A program made the translations under genes and the position numbers. Shown here piece by piece: positions 7,774-18,241 of a DNA stretch of 64,000 nucleotides. Below the pieces are notes generated by a model. It was not told the DNA's origin. It did no database searches and saw only the letters and a program-made list of their open reading frames with translations. Where the stretch lies: positions 160,001 to 224,000 of the forward strand of contig CM000153.2 of assembly GCA_000004695.1 (NCBI GenBank), written 5' to 3'. Each line of letters begins with the position of its first letter. Within the stretch, counting starts at the first letter, position 1. This DNA is from Dictyostelium discoideum (lineage: Eukaryota).

Positions 7774-9139
7774 TTATAAAATTAAAATAACAGAAATTAA
7801 AGAAGATAAAATCAAAACAAAGAATGGAGCGAGATAAGATGAAGTACCTGGTTGTGAAGTTTCGGTTGGAGTTGGAGTTGTTGATGGAGTTGGTGATGGT
7901 TCAATTGTTGATTCACCAGTGTAAGTACCATTTGAACAGATAACTTCGTATTTCCAATTAGATGGAACTTGATTTAAAGTTGTAGCAGCTTTTGGAATTA
8001 AAGCAACAACACCTTGAGCAACACGATCACCACCAACATAAGTGTTACCATCATCTCTAGCGGCATGAACAGCGAAACCTCTGCCAACTAAACCAGAGAA
8101 TGAAAAGTAACTAGTTGAGAGATAATAATAGGCATTTTTGAAATCGTTATCAAAGATGCAAAGATTACCTAAATCACCGAAATGTCTTGATGTATTCTCT
8201 GGGAAAGCATGGACTTGTGCGCCTGATAACCAGTGACCACCAATTGAAGCACCATCAACAGTGGTTAAATCACCAAATGCATGAATATGGAAACCATGTA
8301 CACTTTTAGCAACACCACTTACAATACCATTTACTGAAACTGAATTTGATGAAGATCTAAACAAGACGGAACCTCCAATAGCGGCAGATGGAGATTTGGT
8401 GGTATTTGCCAACAAAACCATTGCGTCATATTGAGTATTTGATAAGCTTGAGTAGGCACCAGCAGTATTTGCATTGCCAGTGGTTGTATTAACACCATTG
8501 GTGGCTGGCACATTTGCTGAATTACCAATACCAATAATACATGATGCAACAACGGTTGTCAATGGACCAACTGATGTTCCAACTGATGATTTCAATAAAT
8601 CACATGAATATGACTCTTGGAAAATTGCAATCGATCTTCCAATGATCGAATTTGGTGAGTCAACAATTGATACTGATGTCAAACTATCGAAATTGCTGCT
8701 AATTCTATTATCATTAACATAGAGATTATATAAATCACCTGCTCTGGAACCTCCTGATTGACATTGCTCTGTACCTTTTCCATCAACTTGGAAAACACCA
8801 CCTAAATCAGTATTATTTGATGGATTATAACCATATGTCATAATTGCAGTTGCATATGAACCAGTTGGTAAATTAATTGAACTTATATTATAAACTAAAT
8901 TAAGGGCACCCTTTTTAATAATAATAATAATATTAATAATTAATAAATTTACTTTTTTTTTTTTTTTTTTTATAAATTAAATATTTACTTACATCTTGTG
9001 CAGTTAATGTAACATAACCTGTAATATTTTGATTTACAGTACCAACAGAACCAAATTTACAATAACCATATTGGTAATCTGCTGAAATGATAGAGATTGC
9101 TGATAAAACAATTAATAAAGAGATAATTAATTTATTCAT
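7774..9139 (-). CDS. Extracellular GPI-anchored protein with two tandem Cu/Zn superoxide dismutase domains. Two exons: complement(8993..9139) and complement(7774..8910)
   Basis: Exon 1 gives a signal peptide, MNKLIISLLIVLSAISIISA, plus the start of SOD domain 1 and ends AQD|gtaagt. The acceptor aaaaag|GGTGCC at 8911-8912 keeps the frame, and the intron is 82 nt. Domain 2 keeps the metal-ligand motifs HGFHIHAFGD, RHFGDLGN and GRGFAVHAARDDG...GGDRVAQGVV. Domain 1 is SOD-like (AGDLYNL...IAIFQES...ASCIIGIG) but has lost most His ligands. The C-terminus is S/T/P-rich then hydrophobic (...SSYLAPFFVLILSSLISVILIL), a GPI-anchor signal. It may correspond to the dictyostelid membrane SOD sodC, but I am not sure enough to assign the name. 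Confidence 0.8.
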
Positions 9140-9489
9140 TTTTTTTTTGTTTTTTTAAAAAATTAGATTCTAAAAATAAAAATAAAAATAAAAAAAAAAA
9201 AAAAAAAAAAAGGTATCCACATTTTTGATTTTTATAAAATCATTAAAAAAATTAAAAAAAATAAATTAAAAAAAAAAAAAAAAATAGAAGTTACAAAAAA
9301 AAAAAAAATATCTTTTCCAGTTTTTTTAAACATTTTTTTCAATTTTTTTTTTTTTCAAAATGTAAAAACCATGATTATTTGAAAAAAAAAAAAAAATTTT
9401 AAAAAAATTAAAGAAATCGACGGATCTTTTGAAAAATCAAAATGTTTTTTTATGATTAATTTTCATATATTCATTGAAATTAATTAATA

Positions 9490-9526
<37 letters not shown>

Positions 9527-9532
9527 CAATAA

Positions 9533-9566
<34 letters not shown>

Positions 9567-10064
9567 TTAATTTTATAAAAAATCTCGGTAGGAAATTAGC
9601 TTTTTTTGGATTAGCTCAGGAAAAAATGATTTATTATTATAAAAATAATAGAAAAAAAAATAAATAATAAAAAAGAATAATTGATAATTTTATTATTTTT
9701 ATAATAAAGATTTTATTCCTTGAAAATTTATTAAAAAAAAAAAAAAAAAAAGGAAAAAAAGGAAAAAATTATTTTCAGTTACAGTTACTTGTTTCATTAT
9801 GGCTAATAATTTTTTTATTTTTTTTTTTTTATTTAAATTTATTAAATTCTTATTAGAATTATTTAGTAATTCTTTAAAATATGAATTTTATTGTTTTCTT
9901 TTTTTGGATACACATTTTTATTTGTTTTTTTATTTTTTTTTTTTTTCATTTATAAAAATGTTTATTAATACATGATAGTGGAAAAAGATTTGGTTTGATC
10001 TTTTTTTTTTTTTTTTTATTTCATTTTTCTATATTTTATAGATGTTTTTTTTTTTTTTTTTTTT

Positions 10065-10742
10065 TTAACTTTGTTGACCCTTATAACCAAATTTAAGTCT
10101 ATTTTCATAAAATTCAATTAATTGTAATGGTTCTTTATGTTTAAGGATTTCATTTAATACCCAAGATAATTTTTCTTGACCTCTCCATTTAACAAAGAAA
10201 AATAGTGTATTATCTTGACCAAAGGGTTTACAACCTATAATCTCCTCAACACAATGACCATTTTCAAAACCAATACCTTCAATATAGGGTACACCAAATT
10301 TTATATATTCATTTTTTATATATTCTTCATCATCAATTAAATGATTTGTTTTTTGCTGTGTTGATGTATTTGTTGTTGTTGATGTTGCTGCTTTTGTTGT
10401 TTTTGTTGATGATGATGATGATGAAGGTTTGGTGGTTGGTGGTGGTGATGATGATTCTACTGCAGTTTGATCATCATTAACTATAACATTTTTTCTTTTT
10501 CTACTTTTTTTTTTTTCTTGTTCTCTTGAACTTTCAAATTCTTTAACAAGTTCTGGACAACCTGCAACATTATCTTCATCTTCCCATGTATCATAATCTG
10601 CTGTGAATCCTTTCCATCTTATACTATATTGAATCCTTCCATGCTGAACCCTTTTATCTAAAATTTTTTCAACTTCAAAAACATCTCCTGCTTCCTCTGG
10701 TTCTTCTGGTTCTTCTATTATTCTCTTATCTCTTTTTCCCAT
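10065..10742 (-). CDS. Heterochromatin protein 1 (HP1)-like chromodomain plus chromo-shadow domain protein, 225 aa
   Basis: The N-terminal chromodomain is FEVEKILDKRVQHGRIQYSIRWKGFTADYDTWEDEDNV..CPELVKEFE. An acidic S/T hinge follows. The C-terminal chromo-shadow domain is GFENGHCVEEIIGCKPFGQDNTLFFFVKWRGQEKLSWVLNEILKHKEPLQLIEFYENRLKF. It is single-exon. It may be one of the dictyostelid hcp genes, but I have not assigned a name. Confidence 0.85.
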   Translation of the reverse strand: MGKRDKRIIEEPEEPEEAGDVFEVEKILDKRVQHGRIQYSIRWKGFTADYDTWEDEDNVAGCPELVKEFESSREQEKKKSRKRKNVIVNDDQTAVESSSPPPTTKPSSSSSSTKTTKAATSTTTNTSTQQKTNHLIDDEEYIKNEYIKFGVPYIEGIGFENGHCVEEIIGCKPFGQDNTLFFFVKWRGQEKLSWVLNEILKHKEPLQLIEFYENRLKFGYKGQQS

Positions 10743-11341
10743 TTTTTTACAATTTTATCCGTTATTTGAAATAATTAAAAAAATAAAAAAAAAAATAAAA
10801 AAATGAATTCAAAATTTCAAAAAAAAAAAATAAAAAAAATTAAAAAAAATAAATTTTTTTTTATATTGGCTATGAAGATGAAAAAATTAAAAAAAAAAAA
10901 AAAAAAAGAAAATAAAATTAAAATTAAATGTGTGTTTGTACAAACTCTCAAAGAGTTATATATATATAAAGGAATTCTAAAAATGTTTGAAAAAATAAAA
11001 AATTAAAACTGTAAAAAATTTATGCCTATTTTTATTTTCAAACCCAAAAACACAATTCCCGCTTTTTTTTTTTTTTTTTTTTTTTTCAAAAATAAAAATA
11101 TTATGACAACATTTCTTAAAATGGCAGAATGCAACTTTTCAACCAATTTATGTTATTAGAGTTTTAGACAATTTATCTCCAAAATTGCTTTTTTATTTTT
11201 TATTTTATTTATTTTTTTTTGGGTTAAGTTATTAAATTTTTTTTTTTTTTTGCAGGTTTATGACATATCACCAATAGAGTCAATTTCTTTATTTTGTTTA
11301 TTTTTTATTTTTTATTATATTTAAAACTCTAGATCTTATAG

Positions 11342-11373
<32 letters not shown>

Positions 11374-11884
11374 ATTCTTTTTAAAATTAAATTTCATAAA
11401 TAAACTTTCACAATGTCCAAAATAAAAAATATACATCGGGAATGAATATGGATATTAAAATTATTTTTTATTATTTTGTTTATATTTTTTAATTGTTTTT
11501 TTTCAGTAAGCACATAAATATTATTTAAGTTCAAATGAAATTGATTTTACAAATAATATGGATGGTTTAACATGTTTGGCGAATTCATTTATTAGTGAAA
11601 CATCAGGAGTATTAAATTTTCAATTAGGTTCATCATTATATAATTATGAAGTTAAAATTGAAGAAATTGAATTTTTTATTTCTCCATCACCATCTCCATC
11701 TCCATCCTCAACCCCATCCTCAACCCCTTCATTAACCCCATCGTTACCTCCAACTTTACCTCCAACTTTACCTCCAACATTACCTCCAACACAACCTCCA
11801 TCATTACCTCCATCTTCCTCATCTTCCTCATCACCCTCATCACCCTCATCACCCTCATCATTATCAAAAAGTGATAGAAATAAA

Positions 11885-14319
11885 TCAATCAATCAAAGTT
11901 TCATTTGGAAATAAACTGCATTGTAAATTACATTCAAGAGGTATAATATTATTATTTGAAGATCTTGTTAAACTTGCATTTTTAAAATCTTTTAAACTCA
12001 TTCCACCAATCTTTATTGAAATACCATTGTAAATATTATTTCTAACCATTGGAACAACTGTAATAATTGGTTCTAAATATTTAATAATAAAATTTGATAT
12101 TTTTAAATCTTTACCAATAAATACAGTTACATTGAGTGAACTCTCTTTACTGTTTGCTCTAACTATTAATACCCTTTCTTCTTGTTTGAATATTGTTGTA
12201 TTTTGATTATTTGCAAATACATTAACTTTGAATTCATCAGTCGTATTGAAATTTTTACCTGAAATTGTGATAAGACCTCCACAACTTAATGTTTTACTAT
12301 CTTTATTTATTATACCAAAAATAATAGGTGGTAATATTAAATAAAATGATGATTGCATTTTAAGGGCATTGACAGTAATATCAATTGGACCACTTTCATA
12401 TATATCTGCTCTAACAAGTGTAATTTGGTTATCTGTTAGTGATATAATATTTGATTTGATTTCTTCACCATTTAAATAAACTTTAATTAATGATATTGTA
12501 TTACCAAAATTATTACCATGAATTGTAATTAAATTACTATAACCTACTCTAGAGAATGAACATGATTTTACATTTGGTGGTTCATATGTAAAATATAATT
12601 GATCAAATACTTTAAAATTATATTTAAATGTAAATCTTTTATTCATACCAGTACCAAATGGTGTTGGACATATGGTTCGATAGTATCCTGATGTTGACAA
12701 TTGTAATGATGGTATTGAACATTCTTTAGCTGGTTCCTTACCGACTACCATAGTTGGTTTCATATCTAATGAATGAATTGGACACCTGACGTAATATAAT
12801 TCCATAACTATCGTCCCATTTGATACTGATGATGTTCCATTGATAACTTTAACTGATAATGATGCTGGAATTGAAATTGGATTAATCGAAATATCAGCAC
12901 GAGTGAAAATAATATTAAATGATGCACATTTTAAAAGTGGTATTTTAAATGTTACAGTCTTTTCATCAGGTGTTACATTAAATTGGGTAATATTAATTTT
13001 AGTTCCATCAGCAACATTTAATTGAATAGATGATTCTTTTGAACCAAGATTTGAGCCAGCCAATGTTACAATACCATTTAAATATGACCCACTTGAAATT
13101 TTGGGAATATTGTATGAAAATGTTACAGGACTAGAACTTGTTGAATTACAACCACCAAAATTAATATTAACAGGTAAATTTTTACCACCAGATTCATTGG
13201 AACTTAATTTACATTCTAATTCAGTTGATGTTGTTGATTTAATAAATTCACATTGTTGATCACCTATTGTAATTATTGGGATTAATGAAGTTGAAGATAG
13301 TTTTGAACCTTTAATTGTAACAATACCACCAATTAGATTTGATACTGATGATATTGATGTTATTATTGCTGGGAAACAATGGATAAATTTCTTTTCACTT
13401 GAAATTTCATCTACAGTAATATTTACAGACATTGGACCAACTTCAACTCTATTATAGTCATTTACCTCAATTCGTACATGTCTTTCTGTAATATTAAAAT
13501 TATTTTGTATAACACCATCGAAATAAACTTGAACTAATTTTTAATATAAAAGTTTTTACCATTAATTGTTATTATTTGTTTTGATGGATCTGAAATGATA
13601 CTTGATATTATTGGTGATGCATAAGAAAAAGGAAAATCTGCGGATAATCTGTTAAATCTAAAAGTAAATTTCCCAGAACCTATGTTAGCATAAACTGTAA
13701 TATTGTTACAGTTAGAGGAAGGATTAGACATATCAGTTCTAATATTAAAACCTTTTCCTGCACTTGTAAGAATATATTTATTTTCTTCATTGAAATATAA
13801 TAACTTTCCACTAATAAGAAATTCACCTCCATCTGTTGATGGATGTTTACTATACTTGACGCCAAGTGGTTTTGGAACACCATTTGATAAATGCAAACTA
13901 AAAGTGCAATCTTCTGTTGGATTTGAAACATCTCGTGCACAACCTTTATTACTTAAAGTGCCCCATAATCTTGTTAATGGTTCATCGGAATGGAAAACAC
14001 AATATCGGTATGTATCATCAACTTGGCTACAATTAAAATAATTTGGAGCCATATCAGTTCTTGGAACCATTAAATCATTATACATAATCAAGCTAGTAAA
14101 ATATGATTTATCTTTATTATAAACGTAAGTCAATGTATCATTTGCAAACCTAATGTCTAAAATTAAAAAATTTGAAAATTAATAATATATATTAAAAGTT
14201 AACTTTTTTAAATTATTACGAAACCAATAAATACCCAATACTTCTGGTGGACGCACAGAAAAAGTCTTTCCATAAAATGATATCGAAATGATCAAAAATA
14301 AAATTAATTTACTTTTCAT
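11885..14319 (-). CDS. Secreted multi-IPT/TIG-repeat protein, intact copy A of a tandem family, about 775 aa. Proposed structure: complement(14235..14319) signal peptide; complement(13560..14156) N-domain; complement(11885..13527) IPT repeats
   Basis: Exon 1 is [28 protein letters not shown] with donor G|gtattt. Exon 2 follows acceptor ttttag (14157-14162) and encodes ...[40 protein letters not shown]...[19 protein letters not shown]. The 515-aa ORF 11885..13432 then carries about five IPT/TIG-like repeats with the GG.VTI.G.N..., Cx.....C pattern and ends ...[11 protein letters not shown]. The IPT domain that begins [23 protein letters not shown] is split from its continuation [22 protein letters not shown] by TAG plus a frame shift. 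The two parts join in frame if 13528..13559 (gtaaaaac...ttcaag, 32 nt) is removed as an intron. The paralog shows the same interruption. I see no TM segment downstream, so it is secreted or has an undetected 3' exon. It resembles the dictyostelid Tgr-type IPT/TIG adhesion family, but I cannot assign a member. Confidence 0.6.
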
Positions 14320-14439
14320 TTGCTAATTAATAACAATCAAAAAATTAAAAAAAAAAAAAAAAAAAAAAAAATAAATAAATAAATAATCAAAAAAAAAAAA
14401 AAATTATAAATAGAATATAAAAATTAATTCTAAAAATAG

Positions 14440-14600
14440 AAGCCATAATCTGGTTTTTAAATACATTTGACCTGTGTTTGTGATTGTCAAATTTTTTTTT
14501 TGAAAGGGCTTTCTTAAAAACTTACACATTGCAATTTAAAAGGAAGTGCTATACATATTTAATCTCGAGATTTTCAATTTAAATATTCTTTCTCTATTAT
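14440..14600 (-). promoter_or_regulatory. Conserved upstream block of the IPT/TIG gene family (copy A promoter)
   Basis: The roughly 150-bp block upstream of the copy A ATG (including ...tttaaaaggaagtgctatacatatttaatctcgagattttcaatttaaat) recurs with few changes upstream of copy B (16640-16810). A shortened version sits upstream of the gene fragment (15120-15180). GC-containing islands in pure-AT spacer, conserved between paralogs, suggest shared promoter elements. Confidence 0.4.
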
Positions 14601-14699
14601 TGTTAATTATTCTCTTTTATTTTTTTTTTTTCTAATTAATTTTTTTTTTTTTTTTTTAGTGCAATAGTTATATTTAATTATAATTTTTAAATATCTAAA

Positions 14700-14978
14700 A
14701 AAATTGTTAACCATAACCTTTAATTGTGGCAATACCACCAATTAGATTTGATATTGATGATATTGATGTTATTATTGTTTGGAAACAATTGACAAAATGC
14801 TTTTTAATTGAAAGTTCATTTACAGTATTATTTACTGACATTGGACAAACCTCAACTCTATTAAATTAAAAAATTAAGAAACCAATAAATACCCAATACT
14901 TCTGGTCTGACCACAGAAAAAGCCCTTCCATAAAATGATACCAAAATGATCAAAAATAAAATTAATTCACTTTTCATT
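14700..14978 (-). pseudogene. Rearranged fragment of the IPT/TIG family gene: an IPT-repeat piece fused directly to a signal-peptide exon
   Basis: 14700-14860 matches 13300-13460 of copy A (…[23 protein letters not shown].../MSVNITVDE...) in minus orientation. It is joined directly to a copy of the signal-peptide exon at 14894-14978 (MKSELILFLIILVSFYGRAFSVVRPEVLG...). The approximately 1.2 kb N-domain in between is missing, and the reading frame is not maintained. Confidence 0.55.
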
Positions 14979-14994
14979 TGTTTATTAATTAAAG

Positions 14995-15040
<46 letters not shown>

Positions 15041-15399
15041 ATAACCCAAAAAAAAATAAAATAAATGGTAAAAAAAAATTATTAATGAATCTAAAAATAA
15101 ATTCTAAAAATAGAACCTATAAATCTGGTTAAAAAACATTTAACCTGTGCTTGATTGTGTCAATTTTTTTTTTTGATAACCATGTATATAGGTTTTAGTT
15201 TTATGTTTTTTTTAAACTGTGTGGTTATAGTTTCGAAATTATTATTTTATATATATATTATTATTTTATTTTATTATATTTTATTTTTAACATATCAGAT
15301 ATTTTAATTAGTTTTTTTTTCAGTAAAATTATTTAAAAAGAGTTTTTGGAGGGTAATTAATTTAAATTAAAGCAAAAAGAAGTAACTAAACCAATTGAA

Positions 15400-16462
15400 A
15401 TACCCGCAAATATATCACTTAATAATTTACAAGATTTATTTCCACCACATTTTGGTAATGAAGAGGCTGATGAGGATGATGAAGATGGTGATAAATATGG
15501 AGATGATGATGGAGAATTTTATGGAGATAATGATGGAGATAATGATGGAGATAATGATGGGGTTAACGATGGGGTTGGCGATGGACCACCTTCAACTCTA
15601 TTATAGTCCTTCACTTCAATTCGTACATGTTTTTGTGTAATATTAATATTATTTTGTTTAACACCATCGAAATAAACTTGAACCAATCAATTTTTAATAT
15701 AAAAGTTATTACCATTAATTGCTATTGTTTGTTTTGATGGATCTGAAATTATACTTGATATTATTGGTGGTGCATAAGAAAAATCAAACCATTGTTGAAA
15801 GTTAAATATAAATCTAAATTTCCCAGAACCTGCTGAAGCAGAAATAGTGAAATTGTTACAGTCAGAGGACGGTAGAGACATCAGTTTTAAATCTAAAATA
15901 ACCTACATTGGTTTGTACTTCTGGGAATCTTTCAGAGAAACATAAAAACTTTCCACCAATAAGAAATTCTCCTCCACTTGTTGGTGGATGTTTACTATAC
16001 TTGACGTCATATGGTATTGGAATAGCCCTTGATTGTGACAAACTATAACTGCAATCTTCTTTTGGCTCGTATTCTTCCCGTGCACAACCTTTACTATTTT
16101 GATATCCCCATAATCTTGTTAATGGTTCATCGTAATGGAAAACACAATATCGGAATTTATCATCAACTTGACTACAGTTAAAATAGTTTGGTGCCATATC
16201 AGTTCTGGGAACCTTATAATCTTTATACATAACCAAGCTAGTAAAATATGGTTTAAATTTATAATAAACGTAGATCAATGTATCATTTGCCAACCTAATA
16301 TCTAAAATTAAAAATTTTGAAAATTAAAAATTAATATATTTATAACTTTTTTAAAATATTAAGAAACCAATAAATACCCAATACTTCAGGCGGGAAAACA
16401 GAATAAGCCGTTCCATAAAACGATACCAAAATGATCAAATATAAATTTAATTTACTTTTCAT
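15400..16462 (-). pseudogene. Decayed, truncated paralog (copy B) of the IPT/TIG family gene
   Basis: The signal-peptide exon is at 16378..16462, and the acceptor ttttag lies at 16302-16307, the same position as in copy A. The N-domain at 15862..16293 is about 70% identical to copy A but carries a deletion and frameshift near 15881-15900 (ORFs 15862..16293 and 15687..15881 are in different frames). There is an in-frame TGA at 15687-15689 at the same IPT-domain position as the copy A interruption. The whole IPT-repeat block is absent, and the sequence runs straight into a Ser/Pro-rich stretch with further stops. Confidence 0.6.
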
Positions 16463-16519
16463 TTATTTATTTATTAATTAAAGATAACAAAAAAAAAAAA
16501 ACAAAAAAAAAAAAACCAA

Positions 16520-16555
<36 letters not shown>

Positions 16556-16990
16556 ACCGAAAAAAAAAAAGAAAATAAAAAATAATCAAAAAAAAAAAAT
16601 AATAATAATTATCGATAGAACCTAAAAATAAATTTTAAAAATAGAAAGCTATAATTCTGATTAAAAACCATTTGTCTGTGCTTGATAATGTTAAATTTTT
16701 TTTTTTTTTTTTTTGAAAGAAGTGTTTTTTAAAAACTTTTACTTTGAATTTTAAAGGAAGTGCTATACATTTTTAATCTCGAGATATCCAATTTAAATCT
16801 TTTTTCTGTGTTTCTATCTTTTTTTATCTTTTTTTTTTTTTTTATTCACAGTGTATTATTATAATTTTAATTCATTAATGAATTAAAGTAAATAAAGAAA
16901 TAAAGAAAAATACAAAAAAACAAGATAAACTTAATTTTGTGCAAAAAAAAAAAAAAGAAAAAGAAAAAAAGTTTTTTTTAAAAATATTAT

Positions 16991-17028
<38 letters not shown>

Positions 17029-17074: not shown

Positions 17075-18059
17075 ATGAAAAGTAACGGAAAACAATTAAC
17101 ATCAACAATATTTCCATACGTTGCACCATATTTAATAAATGAATTGAAGTTTTTAGAAATTTTAGAATTATCATTACTTTCAAAACAAAATTTTAAAATT
17201 ATTAGAAATTTAATAACTTATGAAAGTAAAGAATTAAATATTGTATTAGGAAAATTTGATCAATTAAAATTATATATTCAATTATCATTCATATATAATC
17301 TATCATATTCAAACTATGAATTTAAATTAATTCAATATAAAGATATTGAATATATTAATTTAAAAAGAGGAAATATAAAAATTGAAAATAACAATGATTA
17401 TCTACTTGAAAATAGTAATAATAATTGTAAAGATTATTTACTTTCACATTGTTCCAAATTAAAACATATTCATTGGGTAATGGATATTAATATATTGAAA
17501 TCCACAATTGGGAAATTAATAATTGATTATACTGATAACGGATTCACAAGTTTTGATAGGTTAATTTTAAATATTGATTTTAATAATCTACCATACTCAA
17601 ATACAAATGAAATTGAATCATTACAATTCATAAATACATATACTCTACAAACTGAAAATGTTTTTAATTTTAATTTTATTAATAATTTTAAACCAAGAAA
17701 ATTAATAATCCATGATGAAAATATTGGTTTACTTTATAACAATATTTTTAAAATAAATCATTTAAATTTAAAAGAATTAAAATGTTTTAGAAATATAATT
17801 GGTTCTTCAATTTTAATTAATTCAATTTTTAATTATTTAAATCAACAAACACAACATGTTCAACAAGAACATTACTCATCAATCACAAGTTTAAAATCAA
17901 TTCATATCAATATCAATACCACCTCAATTAATACTACCAACTTTATTGAATTTAAAAATGAAATTCAATTAATTAAGGAATTAATTAAAAATCAATCTCA
18001 TAATAATAATAATAATAATAATAATAAAACTTTAAATTATTTAAAGTTTAAAATTACAT

Positions 18060-18141
<82 letters not shown>

Positions 18142-18241
18142 TAATAATAATCAATACATAAATGAAATTAATTCATTTAAAAATTTTATAGATTTAATAA
18201 ATAATTTTAATTTTAATATTATAATTAAAATTAAAGATTAA
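17075..18241 (+). CDS. Hypothetical protein, 388 aa, Asn-rich C-terminus
   Basis: Single ORF MKSNGKQLTSTIFPYVAPYLINELKFLEILELSLLSKQNFKIIRNL.... The N-terminal 300 aa are non-repetitive and hydrophobic-periodic, possibly F-box or LRR-like, but I cannot assign a family. The C-terminus holds (AAT)n poly-N. Confidence 0.5.

Follow-up and report, generated by a model that had tools for sequence, protein, structure and literature searches.

The Tgr proteins of Dictyostelium discoideum include TgrC1 (LagC), an allorecognition ligand paired with TgrB1, and TgrD1, which is paired with TgrE1, is intact and is developmentally required (PMC3188802). The published tgr repertoire of strain AX4 comprises 38 genes and 26 pseudogenes, and the tgrBEJ and tgrCDK subfamilies have a duplication rate almost that of transposons. 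The family shows birth-and-death evolution, with loci that are pseudogenes in AX4 capable of being open in other strains (bioRxiv 10.1101/2025.10.22.684067). Here we describe an array of related gene copies in a 64,000-nt stretch of D. discoideum DNA (contig CM000153.2, positions 160,001 to 224,000, hereafter the window, in whose numbering all positions are given unless stated otherwise). The array extends from 11527 to ~16843, and we conclude that it is very probably a decayed tandem cluster of tgr genes of the TgrC/D/K clade, all copies of which are dead in the AX4/AX2-type haplotype. It consists of three pieces that we refer to as copy A, a middle fragment and copy B.

An earlier interpretation made from the letters of the DNA (the sequence-only reading) had proposed a head-to-tail array of one module, composed of a signal peptide, an N-domain and IPT/TIG repeats, and had compared it with Tgr-type proteins; the module was borne out, and the comparison proved to be real family membership. 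For copy A a conceptual protein of 785 aa was assembled from exon 1, exon 2 and the open frame downstream, with the intervening stop bridged. Pfam identified TIG (PF01833, E=2.6e-24) in five stretches of this protein, in keeping with the IPT/TIG repeats that had been predicted in the translation of 11885-13527, and PF24612 (Ig_TgrO1, E=3.3e-16) at residues 133-207; the same tool likewise found both domains in TgrC1. A protein search with the conceptual protein returned only Dictyostelium Tgr proteins, with matches of 769-798 bits (E down to 1e-251) and identities of 55% to LagC/TgrC1, 53-54% to TgrC1 alleles (98% of length) and 53% to TgrD1 (95% of length). The N-domain, which the sequence-only reading had thought to match nothing, by itself aligns to TgrC1 residues 18-232 at 46% identity (E=9e-51) and is partly Ig_TgrO1; the alignment takes in the very motif that had been quoted as unmatched, the TgrC1 counterpart of which ends CLFHSDEPFSRLWG. 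Other likenesses to TgrC1, as far as the window shows, are the putative signal peptide, the Ig-like N-region with the pattern PRT(D/E)MAPNYFNCS...HSDEP.SRLWG, the IPT/TIG repeats themselves and a juxtamembrane ETSGVL...KIEEI. In a neighbor-joining tree copies A and B grouped together as a clade inside the TgrC/D/K group that was separate from the other AX4 members, TgrC1 and TgrD1 included. Judged on their sequences, the genes of the array are members of the Tgr family, in the TgrC/D/K clade, and not a new family, so that the label "lineage-specific" stands only insofar as the whole Tgr family is dictyostelid-specific. A PDB sequence search with the array protein detected no solved structure.

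The elements of the array, in the direction of transcription of the three copies, are as follows:

16463-16843, minus strand: upstream region of copy B with conserved blocks; part of the ~610-bp divergent spacer to a 388-aa gene at 17075.
16706-16843 and 16660-16707: sub-blocks of the copy B upstream region, the first common with copy A, the second common with copy A and the middle fragment.
16378-16462, minus strand: copy B exon 1, putative signal peptide MKSKLNLYLIILVSFYGTAYSVFPPEVL, ending in phase 1.
16302-16377, minus strand: copy B intron, GT...TTTTAG, 76 nt.
15582-16301, minus strand: copy B exon 2 remnant, N-domain and start of IPT-1 (tblastn and alignment).
15581/15582, minus strand: copy B deletion junction, at which IPT-1 "GGTGGTCCA" abuts the Ser/Pro stalk.
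15357-15581, minus strand: copy B tail remnant, Ser/Pro-rich stalk and C-terminal hydrophobic segment.
14978-15176, minus strand: middle fragment, copy of the upstream promoter block, 77-79% identical to the A and B upstream regions.
14893-14977, minus strand: middle fragment, copy of exon 1 (putative signal peptide).
14715-14892, minus strand: middle fragment, intron stub and 149-nt IPT-1/IPT-2 coding piece, fused near 14863.
14320-14714, minus strand: copy A upstream region, colinear with the B-to-A spacer of other isolates.
14235-14319, minus strand: copy A exon 1 (putative signal peptide), 85 nt.
14157-14234, minus strand: copy A intron, 78 nt.
13537-14156, minus strand: first part of copy A exon 2, TgrC-type N-domain (Ig_TgrO1 at residues 133-207) and start of IPT-1.
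13534-13536, minus strand: disabling lesion of copy A, a TAG and frameshift from a 4-nt deletion.
11898-13533, minus strand: copy A IPT/TIG block of ~5 repeats, open in a shifted frame until ...CSLFPNET.
11887-11897, minus strand: 11-nt filler at the inversion junction (TTTGATTGATT), holding the stop that ends a 515-aa open reading frame (ORF).
11527-11886, plus strand: 3' piece of copy A in inverted orientation, covering the juxtamembrane region and Ser/Pro stalk.

The array had previously been located at 11400-16470, limits beyond which it in fact reaches a little. A degenerate pattern of 34 nt, describing the start of the signal-peptide exon, matched three times on the minus strand of the window, against none expected from 100 shuffles, and the ATGs of the three copies lie at 14319, 14977 and 16462. 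All three copies of this exon had been reported on the minus strand, as found, and two of them at their actual positions; the middle copy is at 14893-14977 rather than 14894-14978. The interpretation of the exon as a putative signal peptide is suggested by a hydrophobic N-terminus on a separate exon in all three copies and by its positional alignment with the TgrC1 leader. Exon 1 with its upstream sequence makes up a 221-nt repeat family with three occurrences, and the upstream blocks said to be held in common do recur, a 48-nt block at copy A, the middle fragment and copy B, and a 138-nt block at A and B only. The ttttag acceptor and N-domain claimed to follow each exon do so in copies A and B (the N-domain DNA of which is 78-93% identical) and not in the middle fragment. 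An inverted repeat that the sequence-only reading did not mention pairs 11734-11851 with 15459-15576 at 78% identity. When the repaired copy A was searched by tblastn against the whole 64 kb, no further Tgr-like copy was found outside 11.5-16.5 kb.

The state of each copy was determined by comparison with two other D. discoideum isolates, L002 (GCA_054859385.1) and L004 (GCA_054859355.1), both of which have two full-length tandem copies at the syntenic site. The L002 orthologue of copy A is an uninterrupted 953-aa ORF, in which a leader, an N-domain (Ig_TgrO1) and TIG repeats are followed by a long (S/T)P stalk and, at residues 934-953, by a hydrophobic tail that points to a C-terminal anchor in the ancestral gene. 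By homology, the product of the intact allele is predicted to be a TgrC-like surface ligand for adhesion or recognition.

Copy A, earlier taken to be the one intact copy, is a pseudogene. Its frame is closed by a TAG at 13534-13536 and the IPT block goes on in another frame. At this site all four copies in L002 and L004 have an uninterrupted NG(K/S)NFYI(N/D)N(P/S/Q)LVQVYFDG, relative to which copy A has a 4-nt deletion that produces the TAG and a frameshift after residue 235. A second event affects its 3' end, which is inverted and truncated. Colinearity with the intact orthologue ends at 11898 (...CCAAATGAAAC), and beyond the filler the juxtamembrane and Ser/Pro-stalk region lies in reverse complement at 11527-11886 (~360 bp inverted). 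At the two inversion junctions 28 nt and ~100 nt are lost, the latter corresponding to the hydrophobic tail and stop codon, so that in the window the C-terminal membrane anchor is deleted from copy A; in copy B it is frameshifted. The filler at one junction, TTTGATTGATT (11887-11897, minus strand), repeats the GATT that opens the inverted segment, and because of this repetition we infer that the inversion arose by end joining or templated insertion.

The 118-aa plus-strand ORF at 11558-11914 is this inverted piece of copy A. Its sequence (...SETSGVLNFQLGSSLYNYEVKIEEIEF...SPSPS...) matches the juxtamembrane region of TgrD1 and TgrC1, aligning in TgrD1 to DCLSCHS...ETSGVLYLQL...YDVKIEEI, and it has no Pfam match. 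An independent convergent gene at this position was considered and ruled out by the alignment to the copy A juxtamembrane region and stalk.

Copy B had been described as frameshifted and as lacking the IPT block, which only copy A was said to keep, and alignment to the L002 orthologue upheld each of these statements. Five lesions set copy B apart from that orthologue: the loss of 2 nt between 15881 and 15880, which shifts the frame; a TCA>TGA nonsense codon at 15687-15689, two codons from the site of the copy A lesion; a deletion of ~2.07 kb with its junction at 15582/15581, which removes the whole IPT block; a TAA in frame at 15519-15521; and the loss of 2 nt within the hydrophobic segment, at 15381/15380. 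The ~2.07-kb deletion is probably of the microhomology type (CCA). What remains of the IPT/TIG repeats in copy B, as in the middle fragment, is fragmentary.

The middle fragment extends from 14715 to ~15176 (~460 bp), and the fusion of IPT sequence to a signal-peptide exon proposed for it was confirmed, with the qualification that ~30 nt from the 5' end of the intron lie between exon 1 and the 149-nt IPT piece. The IPT piece is 89% identical to 13306-13454 of copy A. Against all other copies its identity is 83-90% and that of the fragment's exon 1 is 87-92%, whereas the same IPT stretch is 95-97% identical between the A and B lineages (with the exception of the L004 B copy, at 89-93%). As the middle fragment is more diverged than the A and B lineages are from each other, it is not a recent copy of either. 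It ends at 14715, where the copy A upstream region begins, and the module is missing from the L002 and L004 haplotypes, in which the B-to-A spacer is ~640-665 bp. The fragment is most simply explained as a drifted relic of a third old copy cut by two deletions, although it may alternatively be an old mosaic insertion.

The suggestion that the locus be compared between natural isolates was productive, as the locus proved to differ in structure between isolates. The L002 orthologue of copy B keeps its IPT block, but its exon 1 lacks 11 nt and its reading frame is broken in mid-gene. In L004 both copies are full length in extent, yet interrupted. In L006 (GCA_054859205.1, 7316-9637), from the cryptic sister species D. 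cf. discoideum, there is a single copy at the syntenic site, with a B-like N-domain and a tail in direct orientation, from which ~110 residues of the IPT block are deleted and the C-terminus is truncated. The family had been called young. However, the N-domain proteins of A and B are only 67% identical, another isolate has a separate orthologue of each (85% for A and 88% for B), a B-like copy is present in the sister species and the middle piece is the most diverged of all, indicating that the duplication is old and that decay is what varies. On this evidence from sequence divergence and orthology the cluster is older than the divergence within D. discoideum, with decay that differs by lineage.

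Two more distant candidates were rejected: the nearest relative in D. dimigraforme (P0033) is at a different locus, where it is paired with a TIG gene, and a chromo-domain match in D. citrinum (P0072) is not syntenic. As these distant relatives are non-syntenic, the origin of the cluster can be dated no further than the split of D. discoideum and D. cf. discoideum.

Exon 1 of the L004 copy B (2883-2995) is 94.7% identical to the A lineage (window 14208-14320) and 86.7% identical to window copy B (16351-16463). Its greater similarity to the A lineage suggests exchange between paralogues, by gene conversion between the tandem copies in L004.

The intact alleles end ...SGGNKSCKLSRGTIAGISIGFVTALFALILY*, a hydrophobic tail without cytoplasmic residues (L002 16650-16763; window 15357-15400), and an 865-aa AX4 paralogue (P0014) has a similar ending. 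This tail resembles a glycosylphosphatidylinositol (GPI)-attachment signal, unlike the transmembrane segment and basic tail of TgrC1.

From these observations we propose that the ancestral unit would have had two exons, an 85-nt exon 1 encoding the signal peptide and, after a ~77-nt intron, one long exon. Its product would have been a type I surface glycoprotein of ~950 aa in which a TgrC-type Ig-like N-domain was followed by ~5 IPT/TIG repeats, a stalk rich in Ser/Pro and, at the C-terminus, a hydrophobic anchor. The paralogues A and B, and probably a third copy, would have arisen by an old tandem duplication and would then have decayed independently. Copy A would have been killed by the 4-nt deletion and by an inversion of the end-joining type that removed the anchor and stop, and copy B by two small frameshifts, two nonsense codons and the ~2.07-kb microhomology-type deletion. 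The middle piece, in which promoter, exon 1 and intron stub are joined to the 149-nt IPT fragment, is a diverged mosaic, and the cluster would be without function in this haplotype.

Rates of substitution lean in the direction that this history predicts. In pairwise comparisons based on small counts, the ratio of nonsynonymous to synonymous substitution rates (dN/dS) of the IPT block was 0.34 between two full-length A alleles and 0.60-0.68 between the window allele and either of them. The N-domain had a dN/dS of ~1.0-1.4 in every comparison, and the flanking genes 0.08-0.48. These values fit an IPT block that is constrained where the gene is whole and relaxed in the AX4/AX2 lineage, and an N-domain that evolves fast. 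That the N-domain of the array evolves faster than the IPT block is a further likeness to TgrC1, polymorphism of which is reported to peak in the 5' Ig domains (bioRxiv 10.1101/2025.10.22.684067). The synonymous divergence (dS) of the copy A IPT block (11898-13100) between the window and L002 or L004 was 0.14-0.15, about twice the 0.06-0.07 of the neighboring genes for the 388-aa and chromo-domain proteins; with such small counts, the excess may stem from locally faster mutation or from exchange between paralogues.

Could the lesions and rearrangements be artefacts of sequencing or assembly? The region is repetitive, with 22-27% GC, and homopolymer errors are common in long-read assemblies of such DNA. 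However, in a separate assembly, GCA_054883475.1 (probably AX2-214, judging by a genome table in PMC12745789), 12 kb surrounding the array (CM142510.1) align to the window at 99.7% identity, and within 6.1 kb comprising the array there are only three homopolymer-length differences and one poly-T substitution, all of them intergenic. The two assemblies are identical at every coding lesion and junction and differ only in poly-T outside the genes, and the lesions include a non-homopolymer 4-nt deletion, stop-creating substitutions, the ~2.07-kb deletion and an inversion with a unique junction. Since the same lesions are present in the separate assembly, they are not sequencing errors, and we consider the artefact explanation almost certainly wrong. 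Nor do we favor the possibility, which we judge to be highly improbable, that copy A, as in the sequence-only reading, is intact and encodes an expressed protein of ~775 aa, its stop being spliced out. Such a splice is used by the public model ACTFIT_006947 (729 aa, GCA_054883475.1), in the form of a 26-nt GT..AG "intron", the removal of which does restore the frame (ITIN|VQVYFDG). However, the site is continuous coding sequence, a canonical IPT strand, in the four copies from two isolates, and the genuine family intron here is 76-78 nt. A length of 26 nt is far below that of a normal Dictyostelium intron. The model also begins within the middle fragment, skips copy A exon 1 and frameshifts near its end by way of another short "intron", and it requires two more implausible splices. 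Moreover, as the 3' end is inverted, the bridged protein would stop at ...FPNETLID, without stalk or anchor. The neighboring public calls of 209 aa and 118 aa correspond to copy B and to the inverted copy A tail (locus 8390-13284 of GCA_054883475.1, equivalent to window 11558-16462). All three models are annotation artefacts stitched across pseudogene lesions.

A different proposal would be that the truncated pieces are functional, either copy A as a 235-aa secreted ligand or decoy, or the array as a gene-conversion reservoir for an active tgrC. The promoter blocks, exon 1, intron and N-domain ORF of copy A are undamaged to residue 235, and some strains strongly express TgrB2, a truncated family member that has no transmembrane domain (bioRxiv 10.1101/2025.10.22.684067). 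Partial tgr copies have been proposed to act as a reservoir (PMC12745789), and exon 1 of the L004 copy B looks as if converted from the A lineage. Nevertheless, copy A is truncated within IPT-1 and not at a domain boundary, and the separate lesions that have built up in B, like the drift seen in the middle fragment, are signs of neutral decay. Identity to active tgrC1, at ~55%, is too low for efficient conversion, and we saw no near-identical tracts. Most tgr genes besides B1, C1 and M1 are also barely expressed in AX4 (bioRxiv 10.1101/2025.10.22.684067, Fig. S2 legend). Taken together, we regard function of the pieces as very unlikely. We hold it to be unlikely too, if slightly less so, that the A/B cluster is a functional presence/absence polymorphism, with a partner-less and possibly GPI-anchored ligand in some isolates, or that copy A provides a 235-aa decoy.

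Several points weigh against the interpretation of the region as a cluster that has died in the AX4/AX2-type haplotype. The L004 copies and the L002 copy B also carry interruptions (these being long-read assemblies, some may be errors), and demonstrably intact alleles are limited to the L002 copy A. The dN/dS contrasts rest on 4-36 synonymous differences, and the N-domain ratio of ~1, found even between full-length alleles, fits either diversifying selection or no constraint. Copy A may also yield a truncated product of 235 aa, consisting of signal peptide and N-domain. In addition, a literature search did not find dictyBase names or the annotation status of the three array pieces, and it did not establish whether they are among the 26 named AX4 pseudogenes.

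The cluster is set in AT-rich DNA and in conserved synteny. The window has ~22% G+C with long A/T homopolymers, and the single-copy genes flanking the array encode an ORC1/Cdc6-like protein, a sedolisin-like protein, a 388-aa protein, a chromo-domain protein and a Cu/Zn superoxide dismutase. The chromo-domain neighbor (10065-10742, minus strand) is identical to AX4 XP_639321.1, the one informative outcome when ORFs of the window were looked up by exact sequence in a protein collection. The poly-T length differences between the window and GCA_054883475.1 are at 15029-15038, 17021-17027 and 11371 (10, 7 and 1 nt) and the substitution is at 15045; the differences in length probably reflect either errors in the homopolymers or genuine variation. 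The 388-aa ORF (17075-18241, plus strand) has the ~610-bp divergent spacer in common with copy B. This divergent neighbor has no Pfam match and no TIG domain, and its poly-Asn tract causes the protein to vary in length (388, 368, 357 and 372 aa in four genomes). Elsewhere, the GC content of the window peaks, at 37%, over a minus-strand ORF of 616 aa (50212-52062). Its predicted protein is hydrophobic at the N-terminus and has another hydrophobic segment at the C-terminus, and Pfam gave no match to it at E<=1e-5. A tRNA scan found no tRNA in the window.

With respect to the described systems, the array differs from TgrC1 in several ways. It is in another chromosome region, between housekeeping genes, and it has no head-to-head TgrB-type partner; its copies are head-to-tail, no TgrB/E/J-type partner is adjacent and there is no other Tgr-like sequence in the 64-kb window. 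Copies A and B are a separate clade, the intact alleles lack the cytoplasmic residues of TgrC1, and the window copies are all pseudogenes. TgrD1, for all its similarity in sequence, is likewise a living, paired gene, whereas the array is unpaired and dead in the window strain. A parallel in condition is provided by the annotated tgr pseudogenes and partial copies (for example tgrC_ps1 and tgrB_ps in AX4), which are clustered duplicates with stops, truncations and partial fragments (PMC12745789, bioRxiv 10.1101/2025.10.22.684067). The array differs from them in being small, same-strand and outside the chromosome-3 tgrBC hotspot, in conserved synteny. It also has in common with tgr birth and death that other strains have open alleles where AX4 has pseudogenes, and that deletions, inversions and exchange between paralogues have occurred.

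The locus is an instance of the gain and loss of tgr genes by birth and death that has been published and is already known. Its value is as a small and fully resolved case of tgr death, in which 4 nt were deleted from one copy and ~2.07 kb from another, and an inversion acquired filler at its junction. The stitched public models are unsuitable as Tgr members in comparative work. That an intact allele persists in another isolate is relevant to whether unpaired TgrC-like genes affect allorecognition. If the cluster does prove to be a presence/absence polymorphism, an extra TgrC-like ligand, lost in AX4/AX2, would modify recognition or cheating in some isolates.

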